From assembly GCA_963795855.1 (NCBI GenBank), contig CAWCIZ010000002.1, positions 64,001 through 128,000 on the forward strand: a stretch of 64,000 nucleotides of DNA, written 5' to 3'. Source of the DNA: Vulcanimicrobiota bacterium (GTDB lineage Bacteria > Vulcanimicrobiota > Vulcanimicrobiia > Vulcanimicrobiales > Vulcanimicrobiaceae). Both the position numbers and the translations under genes were made by a program. The notes below the pieces were generated by a model, which had not been told where the DNA came from, did not search any database, and worked only from the letters and a program-made list of their open reading frames with translations. Positions 6,452-62,384 of this stretch are shown here, in pieces. Every line of letters starts with the position of its first letter. Position 1 is the first letter of the stretch.

Positions 6452-7629
6452 TTACGAACCGCGCACGAAGAACGCTTTGAGGTATTCCGTTTCGGGCATC
6501 GCCGGGTGAATCGGATGGTCGGGCGCGTGCGCGTGCTTTTCCAGAATCTGCGCTCGCCGCGTCGAGTCTTTTGCCGCGGCCGAGAATGGCGCGCTGCAGC
6601 ATCGCCGGCTCGAGATGATGCGAACAGGAACACGATACGAGAATGCCCTCGCCCGAGAGGACCGCGAACGCCACGCGATTCAGCCGCTCGTACAGTGACT
6701 GCCCCGCAGCGAGTCTTTGCGCCGCTTGATGAGCGCGGGCGGGTCGACGATCACGACGTCGAACTTTCGACCTTCCGCAGCAAACGATCCGAGGACCTCG
6801 AGCGCGTCGCCAAGGTGCGTTTCCACTGTGACGCCATTGCGTCGCGCGTTCTCGATCGCATAGTCGAGCGCGAGCTGCGAACTGTCCGAGCACGTGACTT
6901 CGCTCGCGCCGAAAAGCGCCGCCCGCACGCCCCACGATCCGATGTACGAGTACATGTCCAGCACGCGTTTTCCGCGAACGTAGCGCGCGAGCCGCGCGCG
7001 GTTGTCGCGTTGATCGAAAAAATATCCCGTCTTCTGTCCCGTTCGCAGCGGCGCAGAAAACATCGCGCGTTCTTCTTCCACCGTGGCCGCGTCGGGAACA
7101 TGGCCGACCGTTTCGTCGAATTCGTCGATCCCTTCGATTTGCCGCACCGATCCCGCGCTTCGAAGGAGCATGCCGCGCGGTTTTGCTACGGCTTGCAGCG
7201 CCGCATTAGCACCGGGTCGCGCATTTTTACGATCCCGGCGGTGTTCAACTGCGCGACCAGAATGTCGCCATACCGATCGACCACGAGCCCCGGGCAGCCG
7301 TCCGATTCTCCATATACCGCGCGATAATGCGGCGTGGGATAGATGCTCTCGCGTAAAGCGAATGCGCGCCGGATGCGAGCCGACCACCATGCCTGGTCGA
7401 TTCGAGCCTTTGCGTCGCTGGTGAGAATGCGCGCGCATATGAGCGAACCGGGATTCACGTACGCCGTCCCGACCGGTTTACCGAACGAATCGCGCACGAC
7501 CGCAAAATCGCCGGGTGAAAATGCGGTCAACGGCGATCGACCGATATCGATCTCGTTACTGAACACCCACGCGTGGCCGAGCCGAACGCGCCGGTCCGCG
7601 CGCGGCAGCAAGACGAGGTCGCCCGGCAT
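6452..7629 (-). CDS. rlmI: RlmI-like class I SAM-dependent rRNA methyltransferase; frameshifted
   Basis: GHAWVFSNEI, GESDGCPGLVVDRY, GQKTGYFFDQRDNR, FDVVIVDPPA, PIHPAMPETEYLK motifs across frames. Confidence 0.8.
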
Positions 7630-7631
7630 GG

Positions 7632-8736
7632 TTATGCCGGCGGTTTCCGACGGCGCCATGCGGCGCAGCAAGTCCTCTTCCTGACGCTCCAAAGATCGTG
7701 CGACCGCGAATTGCGCTCGCGCGCGATCCAAGTTTTGCGTCTCGTGATGAACGCGGAAGTACACGTCGCCGCGTAGATAATCGGTCAGGAAACGTATGCC
7801 GTTTTCATAAGCAAGCACTTTTCCCGCGGTGACGAACGCGCTGCGCTCCGCGCCGCAAATCATGCCGACCAGCTCCCTCCAAAAATCCGTTTGCAACGGC
7901 TTGGAAGAGATCGGGATCCACCTCCACTTTCGAGGGGTCCGGTTCATCCTCGGCCGCGCTGGTGCTTGCGGTCCGCACCAGTTCGCCGACGTCGTACAAG
8001 TACGAGGCCCGGCATTAGGGTGTCCAGATCGAGGACGCAAATCGCTTCGCCGCTCTGCGCGTCGAAGAGCACGTTCGTGATCTTGGTGTCGTTGTGCGCG
8101 GCTCGGACCGGAAGCGCTGCGCGAGAAGCCAGATCGCCGAGCGCCGTGCAAAGCGGCTCCAGCGCGAACGCGGCCGCGATCTCCGTTTTCGCGGACGTGG
8201 CCCGGTTGCGCGCGTCACCATCGACCGCCTCGAGAAACGCGGCGAACCGCGCCGGCGTGTCGTGAAAAGTGCGGCAGCGTCTCGTACAAGGATTCTGCCG
8301 GGAAATCCGCCAGCAGCGCTGCAAACTCGCCGAAGGCGCGCGCTGCCGCAAAAGCGTCTTGCGCGCTTCGCACGCTTCCGTAGCACACGCTGTTCTCGAC
8401 ATAGGGGTACGTGCGCCAGTAATCGCCCGCGGCCGTCACGAGGACGTCTCGGCCGTCGAGTGTTGGGAGCAGTCGCAGTACGCGGCGATCGACGTCCGTC
8501 AAGCCGCGCTGCAGCAACTTCGCGCGGATATGCCCGGTTACGGCGGAGATGTTGCTCGTAAGCGCGTCCGGATCGCGAAAGACCGTAACGTTAATGCGCT
8601 GATGCACGTATCGAACGCAGCGGCCGTCCACGCCGTATGTTGCAAAGTACGTGTCGTTGATGTGGCCGCCGTGATAGCGTTCGCAGCCGAGGTAGCGGCC
8701 TTGAAGTTGAAACTGGGCGCCGATCTCCGCGAGCAT
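7632..8736 (-). CDS. APH-family phosphotransferase (N-acetylhexosamine kinase-like); frameshifted
   Basis: GGHINDTY, QRINVTVF, HNDTKITNVLFD, CVLDLDT, GIRFLTDYLRGDVYF motifs. 3' end approximate. Confidence 0.8.
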
Positions 8737-44952: not shown

Positions 44953-46190
44953 GTGTGGAGCACGTCTAGCGCGGCACGGGCTACGGTCGCTCGTCTTTTG
45001 GCGCCGCATACGATCGAAGAGTTCGCGCAGCGCTACTACGAGCGCGCGCCGCTGTACGTCGATCGCAGCGGCCGCGATGGCGTCTATTCACCTTACTTCA
45101 GCCTAAACGAGCTGGAGCGCGTTCTCTACGGCAGCGAGCTGCGTACGAAGGACGTCCGTCTGGTTCGCGACGGTTTGATGCAGCGCGTCGAGAGTTATAC
45201 CTTCTCGCGTTCCACCCGGAAAGCGGATGAAAAAAAGCCGCCCAGCGACGTCATCGACCACGATAAACTCAGCGTCCTTTTTGCGGCCGGCTGTACCGCG
45301 GTCTTCGATGCGTTGGACACGCATTCGATTACGTTGTCGAACCTGTGCCGCGAACTCGAAGCGTTTTTCGGCCACCGCGTCAATCCGAACGTTTACCTGA
45401 CGCCGGCGGGGAATCAGGGATTTGCGCCGCATTACGACACGCACGACACGCTGATACTGCAGATCCACGGCACCAAGCACTGGCGAATCTATGGTTCGGC
45501 ATTCGAGTCTCCCGCTCGACGACCAGCAGTACGACAAAAAAACGCACGCGCTGCCGGAGATTCTCTTCGAAGCCGACATGAAGCCCGGCGACCTGCTGTA
45601 CATTCCGCGCGGCTTCATGCACGAAGGCAAAGCAAACGCGGAACTCTCCCTTCACGTCACGCTCGGCGTGCACGCGGGTCGATGGGCGAATGTGGTGGCC
45701 GACGCAGTCGAGGCGATCGCCGAACGGGATCTCCTCTGGCGCAAATCCGCGATTCATGAAGCAACGGACGCCGAATTGGCGGAGATTCTTTCCCGGCTGA
45801 CGCCGGACGACTTGCGTCAAGCGCAACAGCGCATCGATCGGCGTTTCCGGACCCAGCGCAAAAATCGAGCTCGAGGGGCAGTTGCAGCAGATTGCGGCGA
45901 TCGGCGAATTATCGGCCGACTCGTTCGTCCGGCAGCGCGCGAACATCGTCTATGAGTTGCAGTCCGATGAGAAAAGCACGCACCTTTCCTTCTCGAGAAA
46001 AACGCTCACGTTCGGGCCGCAAGCGGCTGCGGTAATCCGCGAAATCGGCGCGCGCTCCGGCGTGCAGGTCGCCGAGCTGCTGCAGCACGACGAAAAGGCG
46101 CTCGGCGTCGTTCGCAAACTGATCCTCGAAGGATTCGCAGTGCAAGTTGCGCCCTCGGAAGTGCAGGGCCGCCCGGGAGCCGTTGCCTAG
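44953..46190 (+). CDS. JmjC/Cupin_4 Fe(II)/2-oxoglutarate oxygenase (YcfD/ROX-like); frameshifted
   Basis: NVYLTP, GFAPHYDTHD, LQIHGTKHW, LLYIPRGFMHE, LHVTLG; AGGAGG RBS. Confidence 0.85.
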
Positions 46191-53721: not shown

Positions 53722-54801
53722 TTAGAGACGTCCTCCGGGGAGTATGAAGCGAAGCCAGATGACGTCTTGGAAGAACTGACGCCAATCGATCTTGTGGCCT
53801 TCCGGTACGAACACGACGTCGCCATCCTCCAGTGCGGGGTTGGAAGACAGATCGCCGTGCTGCATGCGCGTGATATCGTACGAGGTCGTCACGCCGCGAT
53901 GCCGGATCATGATGTCTCGCAGGTTGGCCCATTTGTTCGGGCCGCCGGCAAGGTAGATTGCGCTGACCAGCGTGAAGTCGTCTTTGAGCGCAATCTCGCC
54001 CGACGAGTTCACGGCCCCCATGACTTGAATGTGTTCTTCGGACGGGATCGTCAAGCTGTCGCCGGAGTGTGCGGCGGCTGAGAACTCAGGGCTTCCTTCA
54101 GCAATTTGCTCGAGTTGCCCGTCGCGGCGCAGCAGTACTTGATGCGATGCCGAGGCGGTGATGCCGCCGAGTTGATCGATTGCGGTGGACAAGGGCTGAT
54201 CCGGGCTCAAGTATGCCGTTCCGGGGTGCAGCACCGCGCCTTTGACGTTTACGGCTAACGGCCGGTTCGCAAACGCGATGCTGTCGCCGGGCAGCAGCGT
54301 GGGGCCGGCGTCGCCGGCGCTTTGCAACGACTGCGCGTCGAACGGTCCTAACGCCATTCCGTTGCGAATGATCCGGATTTTGCTCGTGTCGCCCGCACTC
54401 TGATCGAGTAAACATTTGCAGGCTGCTTGAACGTCCGTCAAAGCGCTGACGAGTGTGTCGCCCGGCCGATACGTAATCGTACCGCCGGGGCCGCCCACCA
54501 CGAACATGTCGCTCGATTGCGATACCAGTGTGACGTCGACGGCCGGAAAGCGCATGTAATTCGCCAAACGGCCTTGAATGCGCGTTGCAAGCTCGGATTC
54601 GCTGGCGCCTTGCGCGGGTACCGCGCCGACGAGCGGCATCGAAACTCTGCCCTCGGCATCCACGGTCGCTTGCGTCGCGAGCTCGGGGTGATTGTAGACG
54701 GATATCTGGACTTTGTCTCCCGGATGAAGCGCCGCTTGTGCGGCGGCCGTAGCCAGGAGCAAAAGCGCGAGCGTGCCGGATGCGATACGCCGGATGTTCA
54801 T
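53722..54801 (-). CDS. Wza-like polysaccharide export protein (Poly_export plus SLBB)
   Basis: Signal peptide; PGDKVQISV, VDAEGRVSMPLVG, LEDGDVVFVP. Confidence 0.88.
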   Translation of the reverse strand: MNIRRIASGTLALLLLATAAAQAALHPGDKVQISVYNHPELATQATVDAEGRVSMPLVGAVPAQGASESELATRIQGRLANYMRFPAVDVTLVSQSSDMFVVGGPGGTITYRPGDTLVSALTDVQAACKCLLDQSAGDTSKIRIIRNGMALGPFDAQSLQSAGDAGPTLLPGDSIAFANRPLAVNVKGAVLHPGTAYLSPDQPLSTAIDQLGGITASASHQVLLRRDGQLEQIAEGSPEFSAAAHSGDSLTIPSEEHIQVMGAVNSSGEIALKDDFTLVSAIYLAGGPNKWANLRDIMIRHRGVTTSYDITRMQHGDLSSNPALEDGDVVFVPEGHKIDWRQFFQDVIWLRFILPGGRL

Positions 54802-54819: not shown

Positions 54820-55809
54820 TTACGGGGTATTGAAAACGGTAAGCGGTGAAACGCTGAAGTCGATTTGAGCCGGAAGCTTCGGCGCCTGCGATTGCCCTTG
54901 CGACTGATAAACGCTGATGTAGTTTTGGTCCGCGTCGATCAAGAGCGCTTGATATTGCGCCTTTCCGTAGAAATTGCCGGGCGCGACGCACGTGTAATCT
55001 TTGCTGGTTACGACGAAGCCCACGACGTTGAAGCCCGGATATTTGGTCGGATTGTTATCCAAATGCGTCAAGAACGCGACGAAGTATTCGGTGGTGCCCG
55101 CAGCGGGCGTCCACGTCACGTACGCGGACCCGACGGGGCAGCCGTTCGTTGCGTTTCCGGCAAACGAAACCGTCACCGGCGATTGCCTCGGAAGCGACAC
55201 GGCCGGATTCAAAATCGTGAAGTTCACGCTGCCGCCCGGCGGGTTGTTCACCTTGGCGTTGTACGTGCCGCCATGGTTCGAGGAATCGGCGTTCGAGCGA
55301 TAGCCGATGCCGAGCGTCGTCGTCGACGCAGACGTGTTGAACGCCTTGCCGCCGAGCCAAAGCGGATTCGTTACGTTTGTTTTATACGGTGCCGGCAATG
55401 ACGGGTTGTCGTTGGAGCACTCGCATAAGCCCGCAGCATCGCGGAAGGTCATCAGGAATCCGATCGCCGGATTCGAACCTTTACCGGATCGTGCGACCGT
55501 CGCGGTGCCGCCCGTTATCTGGAAAACGAACGGTCCGGATATTTTCGGCGTTACCGATGACGCTGCGGCTTGCGGAGCGCGAGTAACGACGCTCGACGTC
55601 GCGGTGAAACCGGCGTCGAGTTCGAGATCGGAAAGTAAATCGGATCCCGTCAAACTGAAGAGATCGTCAGGCGACATATTTTGCGGCGTCTGTCCGGAAC
55701 TATTTCCACCCGGCACAGGGCCGTTCGGTGTTCCGCCACCACCGCCGCCGCAGCCTGCGAGTGCAAGACCTGCGGCGAGTACAATGACGAGAAGAGCGCG
55801 CTTCTGCAT
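54820..55809 (-). CDS. Lipoprotein of unknown function
   Basis: Lipobox LAGC followed by a Gly tract; Ser/Thr/Asn-rich, beta-type sequence. Confidence 0.75.
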   Translation of the reverse strand: MQKRALLVIVLAAGLALAGCGGGGGGTPNGPVPGGNSSGQTPQNMSPDDLFSLTGSDLLSDLELDAGFTATSSVVTRAPQAAASSVTPKISGPFVFQITGGTATVARSGKGSNPAIGFLMTFRDAAGLCECSNDNPSLPAPYKTNVTNPLWLGGKAFNTSASTTTLGIGYRSNADSSNHGGTYNAKVNNPPGGSVNFTILNPAVSLPRQSPVTVSFAGNATNGCPVGSAYVTWTPAAGTTEYFVAFLTHLDNNPTKYPGFNVVGFVVTSKDYTCVAPGNFYGKAQYQALLIDADQNYISVYQSQGQSQAPKLPAQIDFSVSPLTVFNTP

Positions 55810-55931: not shown

Positions 55932-56321
55932 CTATCGGCGCACGTGCAGGTGATACTGCAGTGCTAACCGCAGGCGAAGAACGAGCGCTTTTGCGCTCGA
56001 ACGGACGTCCGAATGGATTACGCGTCCGTGCCGACGTACTTCGGTGACCGTACCTATGACGTCACAAGGTTCGACATGCTCCACCTGCCCGCGACTTGCA
56101 TCGCCGGCGGTCAGCACTTCGCCGCTGCCGATTCCGATGACACGGTGCGCGACCAGAACGTCGTTGTGCGGAAATACGACGACGTCGCCGAAACGCGGCG
56201 ACCGATGCGGTGATACGAGGAGATCGTCGCCTTCGAGGATCCCGGGCGACATGCTGCCGCCGCGCAAACGCAGGCACCACGGCCGCGTTGGGCGCGTCAT
56301 GGCGAGGACGTCTTTGAGCAT
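55932..56321 (-). CDS. S24/S26 family peptidase (Ser/His type)
   Basis: GGSMSP, GDVVVF, VAHRVI, TAGD motifs; no N-terminal TM. Confidence 0.85.
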   Translation of the reverse strand: MLKDVLAMTRPTRPWCLRLRGGSMSPGILEGDDLLVSPHRSPRFGDVVVFPHNDVLVAHRVIGIGSGEVLTAGDASRGQVEHVEPCDVIGTVTEVRRHGRVIHSDVRSSAKALVLRLRLALQYHLHVRR

Positions 56322-56323
56322 CG

Positions 56324-57190
56324 CTACGCTACGGCGGTTTGCGCGTCCATCGTGAGGCGCTGCACGGCGTCGGCGGTATCGTCGGGAGCCCCAAGCGTCA
56401 GCGCATAGATGCGCGACTTCGATAACGCGGCGATGACCCGATCGACGATACGTAGGTGATTCTTGTCGATCGTCGTCTGCACTTCGCTGCCCACGGCCAG
56501 GAAGATCGCCTCGGAGAGCGGCAACGGGCGAGCGTGTGCGTGTCGCCCGCGCCCGATGATGAAGAAATATGAAGCTCGATGCGCCGAAATACCCCAAGCA
56601 CGGTCGAACGTGCGCGCGGGATCGACGGCCTCCCAATCGGTTTCCAAACCGTTCAAGGCCAGCAGGCGGCGCGTGCCGCTGCGAATCGAGAACAGACGCG
56701 GAAAGGATTCCACTTGTTCCGTCGCCGTGTTCACAAGCGCGAACTCGTCCGACAGGGGCATGTTGTCGTCGCTGCGCAGCATGAGCGAAAGCGATGTGGT
56801 GCTTTTCCCGCTGGTCGTCGGTCCGACGATTACGGCCGCTCTATCGCCAATAGCGACGGCGCCGGCATGAAAGACGACCAGCTCTTGCCGCAGGCGAAAG
56901 ACTCGAGCATTGATGGCGAGCATCGCACGGCCTTCGATTGCGGCCGGGGAAAGGCGAAGCGCGTTCGACGTTCCGAGATCGTCGAACGCCCGCACGAATT
57001 CGTCGCCGATGAGCACGCCAGCGGTGCGTCCGCGGGAGATGATGTACGCCGTAAGAAGCGGCTCGCACACACTGCTGTAGTCGAGCATCCGCGCATAGCG
57101 GCGTTCGATAAGATCCATGACGCGCTCGTCATCGCACCCGATCTGCACCGGGACGCGGGCGATGTTCAGGCGTGCGATGGTCGTAGTCCT
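56324..57190 (-). CDS. HprK-related P-loop kinase 1; start uncertain
   Basis: FHAGAV, Walker A GPTTSGKST, LSDEFALV, FPR. Confidence 0.8.
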   Translation of the reverse strand, partial: RTTTIARLNIARVPVQIGCDDERVMDLIERRYARMLDYSSVCEPLLTAYIISRGRTAGVLIGDEFVRAFDDLGTSNALRLSPAAIEGRAMLAINARVFRLRQELVVFHAGAVAIGDRAAVIVGPTTSGKSTTSLSLMLRSDDNMPLSDEFALVNTATEQVESFPRLFSIRSGTRRLLALNGLETDWEAVDPARTFDRAWGISAHRASYFFIIGRGRHAHARPLPLSEAIFLAVGSEVQTTIDKNHLRIVDRVIAALSKSRIYALTLGAPDDTADAVQRLTMDAQTAVA

Positions 57191-57191
57191 A

Positions 57192-57449
57192 CTAAGCGAC
57201 TTCGCGGACCAAGCCCTGTTCGAGGAACACCGTCATGATTTCGGAAACGTCCTGTCCGAGATCATGACCATCCGCGTCATACCGAACGCGCAGATACTCT
57301 TCCAACTCGGTGTGCGTTTTGCCCGAGCAGTTGCGCAGCAAATCGGCCGCCGTCTGATTGACGACATGAACCTTTTCCCGCGCAGGATCGTACACCAAGG
57401 TCTCCACGCCGACCTCACGCATTTCGATGCCGTCAATCGCTTGATACAT
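57192..57449 (-). CDS. Stand-alone PqqD family protein / RiPP recognition element (RRE)
   Basis: 85 aa; REVGVETLVYD, VHVVNQTAADL, LRVRYD, DVSEIMTVFLEQGLV fit the PqqD pattern. Confidence 0.88.
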   Translation of the reverse strand: MYQAIDGIEMREVGVETLVYDPAREKVHVVNQTAADLLRNCSGKTHTELEEYLRVRYDADGHDLGQDVSEIMTVFLEQGLVREVA

Positions 57450-57452
57450 GTT

Positions 57453-57596
57453 TTACTCCGATATGATGTTGCATTGGGGATTAGACGGGCCGGTTTCGAA
57501 ACACATTACCGATGCGAAGCCCGACACGTCGCTGAACAATACGCCAACGTCATAGGACCGGATAATCTCCGGCCGGTTGTACATCGTCTTAGTCAT
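57453..57596 (-). CDS. Putative RiPP precursor peptide P3, 47 aa (not in ORF track)
   Basis: MTKTMYNRPEIIRSYDVGVLFSDVSGFASVMCFETGPSNPQCNIISE; ATGA overlap with the P2 stop; ends 3 nt before the RRE start. Confidence 0.8.
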   Translation of the reverse strand: MTKTMYNRPEIIRSYDVGVLFSDVSGFASVMCFETGPSNPQCNIISE

Positions 57597-57691
57597 CCGA
57601 TTCCGCCCAAACTGCCGAAATCGCCGGCGGCGCTGGCAAACAAGGCGGCCAAATCGAATGTGGCTACGAGGACCGGGCGTGCATACTGCAT
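57593..57691 (-). CDS. Putative RiPP precursor peptide P2, 32 aa (not in ORF track)
   Basis: MQYARPVLVATFDLAALFASAAGDFGSLGGIG; GGAAAGGA RBS; YxxPxL leader motif. Confidence 0.78.
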   Translation of the reverse strand: MQYARPVLVATFDLAALFASAAGDFGSLGGIG

Positions 57692-57791: not shown

Positions 57792-58595
57792 CTACACATA
57801 AGCCAAGGTGCCCACGCGCCGCGCGTGCTGAATCGACATCATGAACAGCGCAAGGGCCAAAGGTATTCCTACCACCGCGAAGGCGGCCAGAACGAGCACG
57901 TCGCCGCGTATCACGCCGAAACCGGCGCCGTGCAAGATCGCTGCCCGCAGCGCGCTCAGGCCGTGCGTGATTGGGAAGACCATGGAGACGACTTTGAGCG
58001 GCAGCGGCAGAACCGCCACGGGGAAGTACACGCCGCCGAGCAGATTCGTCGCGCTGCTGACTATGCCCAAGGCCCCGGTGCCTTTTTTGAACGCGATAAC
58101 GGAGGCGGCCGCGGAGATTCCTATGGGCGAGATGGCGAGCATCGACAGCCCCAGGGCGAGCAGAGCCGTCGGCACATTGGCATGGTGGAGGTTCACGCCG
58201 AACACCGCAGCGCCAATCACCAGGATGAGCACCGTCTGCACGGCGGTGAAAACGAACGCCGACGTTGCTGAGGCGAGGACGACCGCCGGAACGCTGGCCC
58301 GCGTAACCAGAATCGCCTCGATCGTTCCCGACACCTGGTCGCGCTGGATAGCGCTCGCGAATGACGTAAGCGCGACGGACTGGAACCGCGCGAAAACGAT
58401 GCCGATGAGCACGAATTCGAAATACTGGCCGTGCACTGCCTTGAGCGCGCCGGCGCTCGAGCCGAACGTGCGCCCCACGAAAAACATCATCGCGCACATG
58501 ACGAGCACGGACGAGAGCTGCCCGAAGATCGAAAACTTCGACACGGTTTGATACGCCCAGTCGCGGCCGATGAACGCCGACAAAATTTTGGTCAT
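57792..58595 (-). CDS. ABC-2 type exporter permease
   Basis: YFEFVLIG, GTIEAILVT, GGVYFPVAVLP, FPITHGL; six TM segments. Confidence 0.88.
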   Translation of the reverse strand: MTKILSAFIGRDWAYQTVSKFSIFGQLSSVLVMCAMMFFVGRTFGSSAGALKAVHGQYFEFVLIGIVFARFQSVALTSFASAIQRDQVSGTIEAILVTRASVPAVVLASATSAFVFTAVQTVLILVIGAAVFGVNLHHANVPTALLALGLSMLAISPIGISAAASVIAFKKGTGALGIVSSATNLLGGVYFPVAVLPLPLKVVSMVFPITHGLSALRAAILHGAGFGVIRGDVLVLAAFAVVGIPLALALFMMSIQHARRVGTLAYV

Positions 58596-59383
58596 CAGGT
58601 TCCTCTCGCGACGCTTCGGAAATAGCCGAACAGCGGCTGTTCCCGCGTGCCCGCGGGCGCCTTTGCTTCGATCTCCAGCGGGGTCCCGACGGCCGAAACG
58701 CGATGCTCGTGCAGGATGGCCATGCGGTCGCACATCGACCATGCTTCGTCGAGCTGGTTGGTGGCGAGCAGAACCGTTTTGCGCTCGGCTACGACAAGCC
58801 GGTCGCGGACGCTTTGACGAAATTCGACGGCCGCGATCGGATCGAGTGCTTTCGTCGGCTCGTCCAACAGCAACACCGGGGGATCTGCGAGCATCGCCCG
58901 GATCAGCGCCAGGCGCTGCTTCATACCGGTGCTGTAGGAACGGACGCTGGAATGCAGGCGGTCCGCCAGCCCCAACCACTCCGCAAGTTCGAAAATGCGC
59001 TTGCGCAGTGCCGTTCTTCCCAAGCCCTGCAGTTTGCCAAAGAACTGTAAGTTGTCCCACGCGGTCAGGCGCATGTAATACGCGCGTTCGTCGGAGCTGC
59101 AGATTCCGATGCGTACGCGCACTCGAGCCGACTGGCGCGCGACGTCGTAGCCGAGCACTCGCACCGTGCCGGAATCCGGAACCAAAAGGGTCGAGATGAT
59201 CTTTAGAAGCGTGGTTTTTCCGGCGCCGTTCAAACCCAGCACGCCATAACACTCGCCGGCACGCATCGTCAGCGTCACGTCTTCGAGTGCCGTGCGCTTT
59301 TCCGCGCGGCGGAACATCTGGCGCATCCCCTGATCGATGGGATACTGCTTACAGACGTTGCGGATTTCGATGGCGTCAGGCAT
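58595..59383 (-). CDS. ABC exporter ATP-binding protein
   Basis: GLNGAGKTT, YSTGMKQR, LLLDEPT. Confidence 0.93.
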   Translation of the reverse strand: MPDAIEIRNVCKQYPIDQGMRQMFRRAEKRTALEDVTLTMRAGECYGVLGLNGAGKTTLLKIISTLLVPDSGTVRVLGYDVARQSARVRVRIGICSSDERAYYMRLTAWDNLQFFGKLQGLGRTALRKRIFELAEWLGLADRLHSSVRSYSTGMKQRLALIRAMLADPPVLLLDEPTKALDPIAAVEFRQSVRDRLVVAERKTVLLATNQLDEAWSMCDRMAILHEHRVSAVGTPLEIEAKAPAGTREQPLFGYFRSVARGT

Positions 59384-60521
59384 GCGGCAAAAACGGTGAA
59401 ACGGCGCGGCGGAAACCGCCCACGAGCCGCTTCATCAGCTTGGGACGGGCATCGAACTGCGTGAATTCGACGCTCCCGAAATTCTGTTTGAGCAAGTGCA
59501 CGCGATCCGAAAACCGTTCCATCCAAAACAGGCGCATCAGCGTGCGATGGCCGCTTCCGCCGGTAAGGACGCGCGCAACTCCGATATCCGTTACGTAACG
59601 CGAGAGCGTTCCGCCGCGGCGCTCGAGCAGGCGGGAAAGCAGATTCTTGTCCACGGGAGCGTCCAACAGCCACTTCGCGAGTTGCAGCGCGGGCGCCACC
59701 ACCTGCGCCGCGTTCGCTTCCGTGACGCGCTGCTCGAAGACGTCCCAGTCGATTGGCCCGTGCAGCGACTCCGCGATGTCGACAATCCCTCGCAAATGTC
59801 CGTCGAAGCCGTTGCCCCATGCGAGGTGAATGCAGAGATGCAGCAGTTCGTCCTGGGGGTCGAGCCGTCTGCACGGCACTCCGGCGAGGACCACCGGCAC
59901 CGCGCGGTGCCGCATCGCGTCGATATTCAAACGAAACGGGTTGGGCCGCCGGCCGAAGTCCCAGTGGAGTTCGATGCAAAAGCGGCTCGGTTTTCGCGAA
60001 TGCCTGGGCAACTGGTAGTAGTTTTCGAAATACCAACTGCGCCCGTGGGGCGTCGCCTCAGCGTCGTATCCCAGACGCGCCAGCACGTCCTCGGCGAGCG
60101 CAATCTCTTCCCGGCCGAACAGGACGTCGAGATCGCAGAACGCGCGCAGACTGATGTCCCGGTAAAGCGTCTCCGCCAGCGCGACGCCCTTGAGCACGAT
60201 TGGGGAAAGCCCCGCATCCTCGAAGGCGAGAAGCGCCTCGTGCGCCTGCCGCAAGAAGACACTGTTGAGCGCCGAGCGCTTCTGCCGCTGTTCCTGCAGC
60301 TGCTGCACGACCGAATCCGGAACCTTTATCCCACGGCACGATTCTATCGTACGAAGCAGCAGCGGTCCGAAATGATGTTTGGATGCCGTATCGAGCACCG
60401 CTTCCCAGGACTTAACGCCCGCCGCCGCGGCAACCGCGGCATCGGCGTGCGGGCGCAATCGCGCGCACGCGAGGATAAAACGCCACTCCGGCGTCATACT
60501 CTGCGCCAAATTCCGGTTCAC
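59376..60521 (-). CDS. Nucleotidyltransferase family protein (NTP_transf_5-like)
   Basis: VLKGVALA..LY...LRAFCDLDVL, IELHW, LLHLCIH, IDW. Confidence 0.88.
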   Translation of the reverse strand: MNRNLAQSMTPEWRFILACARLRPHADAAVAAAAGVKSWEAVLDTASKHHFGPLLLRTIESCRGIKVPDSVVQQLQEQRQKRSALNSVFLRQAHEALLAFEDAGLSPIVLKGVALAETLYRDISLRAFCDLDVLFGREEIALAEDVLARLGYDAEATPHGRSWYFENYYQLPRHSRKPSRFCIELHWDFGRRPNPFRLNIDAMRHRAVPVVLAGVPCRRLDPQDELLHLCIHLAWGNGFDGHLRGIVDIAESLHGPIDWDVFEQRVTEANAAQVVAPALQLAKWLLDAPVDKNLLSRLLERRGGTLSRYVTDIGVARVLTGGSGHRTLMRLFWMERFSDRVHLLKQNFGSVEFTQFDARPKLMKRLVGGFRRAVSPFLPHA

Positions 60522-60538: not shown

Positions 60539-61201
60539 CTAAATCAGGCCGGATCTAACTGCGTGAACTGCCGCTTGCGAGCGCGCGGTGATATTCAGCT
60601 TCGAGAAAATGTGACTGACGTGATTTTTCACGGTCTTGTCGGACAGGCTCAGCTGCTCGCTGATCTCCTTGTTCGAGAGGCCCTGCGCGATCAGACGAAT
60701 GACTTCATTCTCGCGCGGCGTCAAATCGTACATGTGACCGCGGCTGGTCGAGCTGCGGCGGCGCAGCAGTTCGCCGGCGATCCGCGGATCCACGTAGGAA
60801 CCGCCCGCGGCGATGATCTTGAGGGCGCGAATCAGTTCTTTCGGAGCCACGTCTTTGATGATGTAGCCGCTGGCGCCGATGGAAAGCCCCCGCTGCAGCA
60901 CTTCCGGCTGCAATTGCGTCGAGAGCAAACAGACTTTTACGGACGGGGCATCGCGGCGCACGGCCGCCATCGCGTCGTCCATCTTGAGGATTTGTCCGTC
61001 GACGTCGAACACGATCAGGTCCGGCGTGAGGGAGCCGAGCGGAATTTTGTCGATCGCTTCGGCGTCGCCGACGATCTCGAGTTCCGCGTCGGTCGCGAGC
61101 AACTGGCAAAGCGCCTTGGCAAAGATGCCCTGGCCGGCGACCACTACGATGCGCGTCGTCCGCGAAATCGCTTGCGGTGCTTCCAATAGTCCTGCAGTCA
61201 T
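60539..61201 (-). CDS. NarL/FixJ-family response regulator (REC plus LuxR HTH)
   Basis: PDLIVFD, GASGYIIKD, LTPRENEVI, GLSNKEI, TVKNHVSHIFSKL. Confidence 0.92.
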   Translation of the reverse strand: MTAGLLEAPQAISRTTRIVVVAGQGIFAKALCQLLATDAELEIVGDAEAIDKIPLGSLTPDLIVFDVDGQILKMDDAMAAVRRDAPSVKVCLLSTQLQPEVLQRGLSIGASGYIIKDVAPKELIRALKIIAAGGSYVDPRIAGELLRRRSSTSRGHMYDLTPRENEVIRLIAQGLSNKEISEQLSLSDKTVKNHVSHIFSKLNITARSQAAVHAVRSGLI

Positions 61202-61504
61202 GGAGAAATCGTGCCTCCTAATAATATGAAGAACGAACGGCTCGGGTAACTATCATCCTGCCACTCGTCGTACGGTCACGGCCGAGTTCCGCAATCATGC
61301 CATACTGAAATGCCTATATCTATCCCGCATTTGCGGTATTTTTTGTTGGGATAGGACTAAAGAACTGCACGCTGCCCGGGCTATTGGGCGTGCACAGTCC
61401 CGTACTCACGGCTACGCGGCCCATTATCGCATGGGCGTAACGCTTCTGCGCATGTCAGACTCTCAAAGTTATGCTGTTTGAAACCCCGTCCGAATGGAGC
61501 AGCA

Positions 61505-62384
61505 GTGCACGACTCAGTACAATACAGAATTGCCGACGTCGACGTCGCGATCGAAGCGCCGGCGTCCATCTTGCGAATCGTGACCGATACATACCGGCGA
61601 TTCCCGATCAGCGCGCCGCGAACAGTGCCGCACGTTAGGGTTCTGGCGGCAATCGACGACGATGGTCACGTGGACATACGCATCGGTGAAAAGCATTATC
61701 AAAACGTCTTCGCCTGGACAGGCCGGGCAACGGTCGGACTGGAGCTCGTCGAACGCCATCATCACCGCCGTGGCACAGCACTCGCGCTTTCTGATCGTGC
61801 ACGCAGCCGCATTGGAACGTGACGGTGAAGCGCTCTGCATCGCCGCTCCCGGACATACCGGCAAGACGCTGCTCACGGCGCATCTTCTCTCACGCGGCTG
61901 GCGCTGCCTGAGCGACGAATACGCGTTCATCGAACCGCTCAGCGGTCAGATCGTGCCGTTTCCGAAGTTGCTGTACGTGCGCTCTTCCTCGCTGCCGCTG
62001 GTGCCGCGCACGTTTCGCAAATGCCTGGAATGCTCGCCGTGGTATGGAATGGGTGAGCGTCCCGGGCTCGTGTTCTCCGGCGTCGACCCGAGCGCCGCGT
62101 ATTCGGAAGACATCTGGTCCACCGGCGCGCGCTTGTCCCGTCTTCTCATGCTCGTGAAACGCAACGCTTCGGGCCCATCCATCAAACCGTGCGCCGGGTG
62201 GTCGATTATCCCGGAACTCAATTCGGTAACGTGGCAGCCGCCGGATCTGCTGGACGGTTTGTCACGCATGGCGGCCGCGCTGCGCGGCGTCGAGGTCGGC
62301 AAACTGGTCGCGGCGGATCCGCTGATGACCGTAAACGCCATCGAACAGTGGGCTGCAACGGAGCCGGCGATCGCGTATGCCTAA
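61505..62384 (+). CDS. HprK-related P-loop kinase 2; frameshift near 61750
   Basis: IVHAAALE, Walker A APGHTGKT, GWRCLSDEYAFI, PFPK. Confidence 0.82.

Follow-up and report, generated by a model that had tools for sequence, protein, structure and literature searches.

Gene content of the locus

The window, by which we mean the whole 64,000-nucleotide stretch of Vulcanimicrobiota DNA analysed here, carries on its minus strand a cassette of genes around two very small open reading frames, P2 and P3. In minus-strand order, a NarL-type response regulator is followed by an NTP_transf_5 nucleotidyltransferase, an ABC ATPase and an ABC-2 permease, P2, P3, a discrete RRE, a kinase resembling HprK, a leader peptidase, a lipoprotein and a Wza-type export protein (Table 1). 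The exopolysaccharide locus that begins with the Wza gene separates the cassette from a further precursor, P1, and ends near P1 and its JmjC gene.

Table 1 Features of the peptide cassette and of the P1 satellite in the window
Feature	Position	Strand	Description
Satellite precursor P1	44622..44774	+	50 aa; F-A-S core, two Cys, five Asp
JmjC (NO66/MINA-like) oxygenase	44953..46190	+	Downstream of P1; three frames in assembly; PF08007
Wza-type polysaccharide export protein	53722..54801	-	PF02563, E = 2e-20; first gene of exopolysaccharide locus
Uncharacterised lipoprotein	54820..55809	-	Always between peptidase and polysaccharide export gene in the window cassette type
SipW/Sec11-type S24/S26 leader peptidase	55932..56321	-	129 aa; PF00717, E = 9e-9; TIGR02228, E = 9e-8
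HprK-like P-loop kinase	56324..57199	-	Start uncertain (57148-57199); TIGR04352, E = 3e-9, far below cut-off
Discrete RRE (PqqD family)	57192..57449	-	85 aa; PF05402, E = 1e-8, over cut-off
Precursor P3	57453..57596	-	47 aa; predicted leader to Gly26; predicted 21-aa core FASVMCFETGPSNPQCNIISE from 57518
Precursor P2	57593..57691	-	32 aa; predicted leader to Gly23; predicted 9-aa core DFGSLGGIG from 57622
ABC-2 exporter permease	57792..58595	-	PF01061, E = 6e-14; start overlaps ATPase stop
ABC exporter ATPase (DrrA-like)	58595..59383	-	PF00005, E = 4e-31; TIGR01188 below cut-off
NTP_transf_5 nucleotidyltransferase	59376..60521	-	PF14907, E = 1e-47
NarL-type response regulator	60539..61201	-	PF00196, PF00072; heads cassette in same-type loci (synteny)
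Second HprK-like kinase	61478..62384	+	Divergent; broken into two frames in this assembly and intact in G173; TIGR04352, E = 1e-18, below cut-off

Several residues of the cassette proteins do not vary. Asn31 and Asp67 of the RRE are invariant in 12 of 12 relatives, as are Ser23, His59, Asp74 and Glu81 of the leader peptidase (12 of 12), and the Walker A Gly-Lys and the Asp-Glu of the kinase in 10 of 10. The peptidase has an N terminus without a membrane anchor, and its best match in the PDB is SEC11A (E = 7e-7); the RRE gave just a non-significant PDB match, to TfuB1. Matches to HPr-rel-A (TIGR04352/TIGR04353) are weak for the kinase (36 and 67 bits) and the RRE (25 bits), all of them far below the cut-offs of 200 and 35 bits.

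The same order, with two tandem precursors ahead of the RRE, recurs in G173, G037, G038, G375 and G210 (unpublished) and in the metagenome locus L105. All seven cassettes of this type adjoin a Wza gene and conserve the lipoprotein, and the NarL regulator lies upstream in the six that were retrieved on that side. A second cassette type, which is commoner in the class, consists of precursors, two kinases, a peptidase fused to the NTP transferase, an ABC-2 pair and an RRE; many of its members do not adjoin Wza. The two types separate on the peptidase (100/99) and RRE (91/90) trees, which have 20 and 23 rows. The present genome was found to hold one cassette peptidase and one NTP_transf_5 gene for six precursors.

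Single-base frameshifts are frequent in conserved genes of this assembly (5 of 29 tested, two being the same gene), and in the window they affect the P1-linked JmjC gene, the second kinase and flippase genes. As conserved test genes change frame too, the frame changes of the JmjC gene are probably assembly errors, and we did not adopt a reading of that gene as a pseudogene.

P2 and P3 are coupled precursor genes

P2 and P3 are genuine precursor genes, and they are coupled. An earlier note on this DNA had described them as tandem, overlapping reading frames directly upstream of the RRE gene, and their coordinates and sequences were reproduced: the two overlap by ATGA at 57593-57596, and a gap of 3 nt separates P3 from the RRE start at 57449. 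Related genomes keep the stop/start overlap with different letters (TAATG in G173, GTGA in G375), and between the leaders of P2 and its G375 counterpart codon positions 1, 2 and 3 are identical in 19, 18 and 10 of 21 cases. With the overlap kept and third codon positions the most diverged, we conclude that selection acts on the peptides and on their coupling. Beside the orthologous RRE genes of G173, G375, G037, G038, G210 and L105, tandem pairs of homologous small reading frames stand open, so the loss or disruption of these frames in relatives, which the earlier note had named as evidence that would count against them, is not what is found.

To avoid circularity, we searched this genome with a hidden Markov model of 34 peptides that all came from other genomes. 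Its six family members took the top ranks among 65,851 six-frame stretches, with E values of 4e-10 for P3, 1.2e-7 for P2 and 1.3e-4 for the weakest member; the next match had an E value of 1.5. A model of the 22 most distant peptides still placed P3 and P2 first (E = 1e-3) and recovered only one satellite. No PDB sequence matched the peptide profile, the first matches in the ESM Atlas (0.90-0.92) were to unnamed clusters and are leads only, and a promoter and terminator scan gave signals at or under the shuffle level.

Leaders and cores

The family was compiled from 192 stored proteins and 78 locus peptides, which gave 212 unique sequences with a YxxP anchor, of which 147 fall below 75% leader identity; a few misanchored peptides were kept in. 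Conservation in this set is inflated, because the peptides were found by profiles trained on the same motif; with that bias, the leader reads Y-x-x-P-x-[IV]-[ILV]-A-[ST]-[FYL]-D-x-x-x-[LV]-L-x-x-A-x-G, and 140 of the 147 end in A-x-G, which puts small residues at -3 and at -1 relative to the predicted cut. Small residues at these two positions are the signal-peptidase rule. The leader consensus of P1-P3 agrees with its first description.

The predicted cores are short (median 14 aa) and 84 of 147 contain two or more Cys. Of the 147 cores, 64 have serine at position 3 and 93 at position 3 or 4, against 9% further down, and four have no Ser, Thr or Tyr at all. The preference is strongest in cores that start with F, the type of P3, P1 and three distant paralogues, where Ser3 is present in 36 of 38; other cores have it in only 28 of 109, or in 57 of 109 when position 4 is counted. 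In P3 the Ser3 codon lies at 57512, and in P2 the serine is at position 4. As had been noticed before, the tails of P1 and P3 each have two Cys and that of P2 has none.

The earlier description of a conserved leader followed by unrelated, variable tails holds for the leader, and for the tails when paralogues are compared, but not between orthologues, in which the tails are kept. Cores are conserved between orthologues, not hypervariable. P3 orthologues retain F[AT]S[VI]xCFExGPxNPxC[ND]I, with the core conserved in G173, G375 and protein P0114, and the P1 orthologue of G375 keeps 20 of 27 core residues. P2, which has orthologues in G173, G375, G037, G038 and L105, has the most variable core, with two Cys in G173 and G375.

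Distribution

Of 401 genomes sampled from the phylum, 48 matched the leader profile; all belong to the three families of the class of the window, which we take to be Vulcanimicrobiia; there were no matches in 69 genomes of 18 other families. The peptidase profile matched in 50 of the 401, and these tallies include the unpublished genomes G059, G210, G085, G014, G303 and G027. Precursor and peptidase occur together in 43 genomes where 6 would be expected, a comparison in which kin are not independent. This co-occurrence in 43 of the 48 precursor-bearing genomes, together with synteny, bears out the proposal that the peptides are RiPP precursors with a YxxP leader for the RRE. Protein searches gave 58 matches, and 146 representatives at E values up to 0.001. 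The closest RREs in named records belong to Ca. Eremiobacteraeota / Vulcanimicrobiota, in scans covering nine genome loci and five metagenome loci.

An ocean-microbiome study reportedly dealt with RiPPs of Eremiobacterota. Our literature search, which covered few of the subscription papers, found no account of this leader family or of clusters like those discussed below in the phylum.

A proposed pathway resembling that of linear polyphosphorylated peptides

The closest known plan is that of the linear polyphosphorylated peptides (LPP) encoded by lppA-K-B-S-D-N of Paenibacillus alginolyticus (Popov et al. 2026, PMC13381572). According to the parts of that paper accessible to us, LPP clusters are defined by an SpI-like peptidase, a discrete RRE, an HprK kinase, an NTP transferase and a pump resembling MsbA, lie in capsular loci and contain one to three precursors with a YxxPx[VI] leader and Ser at core position 3. 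LppK adds one to four phosphates to Ser3 of the core, LppS needs the RRE in order to cut the leader, and N33 and D70 of LppB hold the leader Pro and Tyr (PMC13381572). The same parts report no activity for LppN, describe the final product and function as unknown and call the family restricted to Bacillota; the names Eremiobacter and Vulcanimicro are absent from six of the supplements (PMC13381572).

The window cassette has in common with LPP a discrete RRE, a kinase resembling HprK, an SpI/SipW-like peptidase, NTP_transf_5, an exporter, the lack of a cyclase, a YxxPx[IV] leader, Ser at core position 3 and a setting in a polysaccharide locus. Four of the five LPP core genes are present, the MsbA-like exporter being replaced by an ABC-2 permease with a separate ATPase. 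Aligned by eye, RRE Asn31 and Asp67 correspond to LppB N33 and D70, the invariant peptidase Ser and His to LppS S29 and H68, and Asp74 to the GD motif of LppS, and the invariant Glu81 seems to stand where LppS has D93. The differences are as clear. The LPP motif YxxPxVLxHQxIxFETxxS (Px9Fx[TA]) occurs in none of the 147 peptides, which share with it only YxxPx[IV] and the final xxS; the leader ends in L-x-x-x-A-x-G here and in I-x-F-E-T in LPP, and the distance from Tyr to Ser is five residues longer. The host phylum is not the Bacillota of LPP, the peptidase of relatives is often fused to the NTP transferase, and paralogous precursors are dispersed in the genome with JmjC, GNAT, cupin or sulfotransferase-like neighbours. 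The window system thus would work like LPP but is not counted as a member, because leader motif, exporter type and host range all differ. We read it as an LPP-like pathway whose leader is of another kind and whose sister precursors are spread through the genome beside oxygenase genes.

We consider it likely that P2 and P3 are substrates of such a linear phosphopeptide pathway. The discrete RRE would bind the YxxPx[IV] leader, and the HprK-like kinase would phosphorylate Ser3 of the P3 core or the Ser at position 4 of the P2 core. The RRE would then present the leader to the Ser-His S24/S26 peptidase for a cut after the A/V-x-G motif, in keeping with the -3/-1 rule of signal peptidases. The phosphate may receive a nucleotide or nucleotide-sugar group through NTP_transf_5, and the ABC-2 pair would export the core, that of P3 probably closing one disulfide. 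For the product, a role within or together with the exopolysaccharide matrix is most likely.

This pathway is built on gene content, synteny, motif conservation and the absence of lasso enzymes, all of which are observed here. From LPP biochemistry we infer the binding, the kinase site, the cut site and the order of the steps. The F-x-S serine, which the earlier note had singled out as a candidate kinase site, gains by the same analogy: it would be core position 3 after the predicted A-x-G cut, the position phosphorylated in LPP, and the 36 of 38 F-starting cores with Ser there compare with a background of 9%. The LPP cut site itself is not directly transferable, given that Px9Fx[TA] is found in 0 of 147 peptides and the Tyr-to-Ser distance is longer by five residues.

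The same chemical plan as in LPP would accordingly recur in an almost uncultivated soil phylum with another cleavage code, A-x-G. With a different phylum, a different cleavage code and more than 140 distinct precursors, the generality of a rule of 'RRE + SpI peptidase + Ser3 kinase' becomes testable, and short cores with a single Ser should be easier substrates for solving the role of NTP_transf_5.

Satellite precursors and JmjC oxygenases

P1 is one of four paralogues outside the cassette; a pattern scan placed the other three at C1:250964, C2:565107 and C3:683655. We mapped 82 precursors in 36 genomes or contigs, two unpublished genomes included, at loci chosen from matches: 51 belong to a cassette, 11 have a JmjC gene within 600 nt, 2 are followed by a GNAT gene and 19 are solitary. 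The JmjC-linked precursors are all of F-x-S type (11 of 20 F-x-S precursors, 0 of 62 others), and their cores are longer (median 27 versus 12 aa) and richer in Asp (16% versus 5%). Each of the four JmjC genes in this genome has a family precursor no more than 4 kb away, and the one at C2:563708-564940 is intact. Of 331 genomes of the class, 7 have a JmjC gene of the satellite clade (>350 bits); five of these supplied the profile, and the other two (G375 and G210) likewise have an adjacent precursor. In G404, an RRE, a precursor, a JmjC gene and two kinases form one gene run.

The satellite oxygenases match NO66 by sequence (E = 2e-28) and by fold (E = 3e-26), and the metal ligands of this NO66/MINA53-like group, His162, Asp164 and His225, are invariant in 10 of 10. 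The JmjC hydroxylases BipG (biphenomycin, PMC12707348) and CzlI (curacozole, PMC11575548) act on RiPP precursors according to the available portions of those reports, and with these and with NO66/MINA53/YcfD the satellite proteins share a JmjC Fe/2OG fold acting on peptides; the precursor families and clusters of BipG and CzlI are different. The Asp-rich linked cores suggest hydroxylation of Asp or Asn.

In the predicted structure, the last 84 residues of the oxygenase form a beta-betabetabeta-alphaalphaalpha-beta arrangement (pLDDT 88). Foldseek matches of this domain include TigE, TruD, ThcOx, McbB, PbtF and TbiB1, and comparison with RREs gave Z scores of 7.7 (PbtF), 7.5 (TigE), 7.3 (MibB) and 6.9 (TbiB1); the top-scoring structure is human MINA53, through this same domain (Z = 10.2). 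The predicted fold is therefore compatible with an RRE but common also to MINA53 and NO66.

The four paralogues may use the cassette machinery in trans and may be tailored by their own neighbours, through JmjC hydroxylation of Asp/Asn-rich cores or GNAT acylation; both are weaker inferences than the pathway of P2 and P3. The partner of the satellites is moreover not unique, because the genome carries an additional, divergent RRE-like gene and another pair of kinase genes. We tentatively extend this to a dispersed combinatorial network, a picture that may well prove wrong, in which one hub of RRE, kinase, signal-peptidase-like protease and exporter in the exopolysaccharide locus would mature scattered precursors, each with its own tailoring enzyme. 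The JmjC protein would use its C-terminal winged-helix domain to read the YxxP leader and would hydroxylate cores that are rich in Asp and closed by disulfides; the resulting phospho- or hydroxy-peptides would bind metals or matrix. If so, the orphan C-terminal domain of ribosomal oxygenases would be a peptide-recognition element, and the satellites offer a direct test of whether a winged-helix domain of NO66/MINA type binds leader peptides.

The satellites could instead be independent mini-pathways, in which the JmjC protein reads the leader with its own winged-helix domain and the cassette serves P2 and P3 only. The RRE-like predicted fold fits this, as do JmjC-RRE fusions and bacterial homologues in RiPP-like contexts, noted in the accessible part of PMC12710340. 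It fits also with G123 (93% complete), which has three precursors and a JmjC gene and in which no RRE, peptidase or NTP transferase was found. However, the best fold match, MINA53, is no RiPP enzyme, Z scores below 8 may reflect a common arrangement, and hhalign gave a probability of 1% for the domain against the cassette RRE. The A-x-G|F-x-S end is kept in the satellites, suggesting that peptidase and kinase are shared, no cassette-type peptidase or exporter lies beside the three satellites outside the window, and six of the seven JmjC-clade genomes carry a window-type cassette, G123 being the one in which none was found. We regard full independence as unlikely.

Other neighbours recur beside satellites. 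An unannotated protein resembling cupins (359-389 aa, with an H-x-H motif) and two genes of sulfotransferase type are found at L002:8479-12289 and L001:5451-6530, and such neighbours also in G173, G123 and G375; the cupin-like protein has look-alikes in Acidobacteriota and Verrucomicrobiota and belongs to no Pfam family. At L003:6938-7811 a GNAT-like gene directly follows a precursor, and the same pair in G123 (L071) suggests that some family members are acylated.

Alternative readings of the cassette

Instead of precursors of an exported product, the peptides could be small phosphorylatable regulators, structural tags of exopolysaccharide synthesis or nucleotide-sugar carriers, handled by the same enzymes and never secreted. 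The constant company of Wza and NarL in window-type cassettes would suit such a role, as would orthologous cores that are conserved rather than diversifying; the function of LPP is unknown, and the available text of that study reports no product detected in the native host (PMC13381572). Against this, both cassette types keep a dedicated ABC-2 exporter, the Cys pairs of 84 of the 147 cores fit an extracellular product, and many second-type cassettes are not beside Wza. We find a purely intracellular role distinctly improbable and retain the exported phosphopeptide as the preferred reading.

Cyclisation to a lasso peptide by enzymes encoded elsewhere was hinted at by the G1/E9 spacing of P3, to which the YxxPx[IL] RRE motif and a weak lasso-PqqD match (E = 0.014) can be added. 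Paeninodin-type phosphorylated lasso peptides have an RRE, a kinase resembling HprK, an NTP transferase and a transporter in common with the window, as described in the accessible text of PMC13381572; unlike them, the window cassette has no B2 cysteine protease, macrolactam cyclase or Thr at -2, and its motif is YxxP rather than WxxP. The B2 protease (PF13471) was found in none of five genomes (G000, the present genome, 86% complete; G037, G038 and G016, 96-98%). G000 and G173 have a single full-length Asn_synthase gene apiece, distant from the cassette, and only weak partial matches were obtained in G037 (98% complete), G038 (96%) and G016, and no cyclase appears in any cassette gene map. The lasso leader pattern is found in 0 of 147 peptides and Thr at -2 in just 3, in line with the lack of this Thr that had been pointed out for P1-P3. 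The ring hint is thereby lost and the lasso reading, largely refuted, retains hardly any credibility. Radical-SAM RiPPs (ranthi- and sactipeptides, PQQ) were rejected as well, there being no PF04055 match near the cassette in five of five genomes.

That P2 and P3 are chance reading frames in an intergenic gap, as their shortness and the lack of any Pfam or NCBIfam match for P1-P3 might suggest, is refuted by conservation and synteny and deserves practically no credence.

Additional features of the genome and its relatives

A second, strongly divergent RRE-like gene lies in this genome at C3:252560-252808 (L107:8546-8827), with no precursor, kinase or peptidase in its vicinity; RRE-like genes of similar score were found in each of the six genomes sampled from the genus. 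The additional HprK-like gene pair, at C1:37633-39113 (L108:7397-9129), is beside an ECF sigma/anti-sigma pair and has no detected family precursor, and such kinase pairs are present also in members of the genus without the peptides. A more distant JmjC group (about 170-270 bits) is found in about 50 class genomes, mostly without the precursor family, for example in 18 of 18 genomes of one genus. The exopolysaccharide locus is flanked by several uncharacterised lipoproteins whose signal ends are rich in Cys and Gly, one being that of the cassette and the others lying at L004:3504-5198 and 6644-8128. A CAGCG(G)CTGCTAC-like stretch, possibly a shared promoter or regulator site, is present shortly 5' of P2 (57720-57750), of P1 (44560-44585) and of the C1 precursor (upstream of C1:251122).
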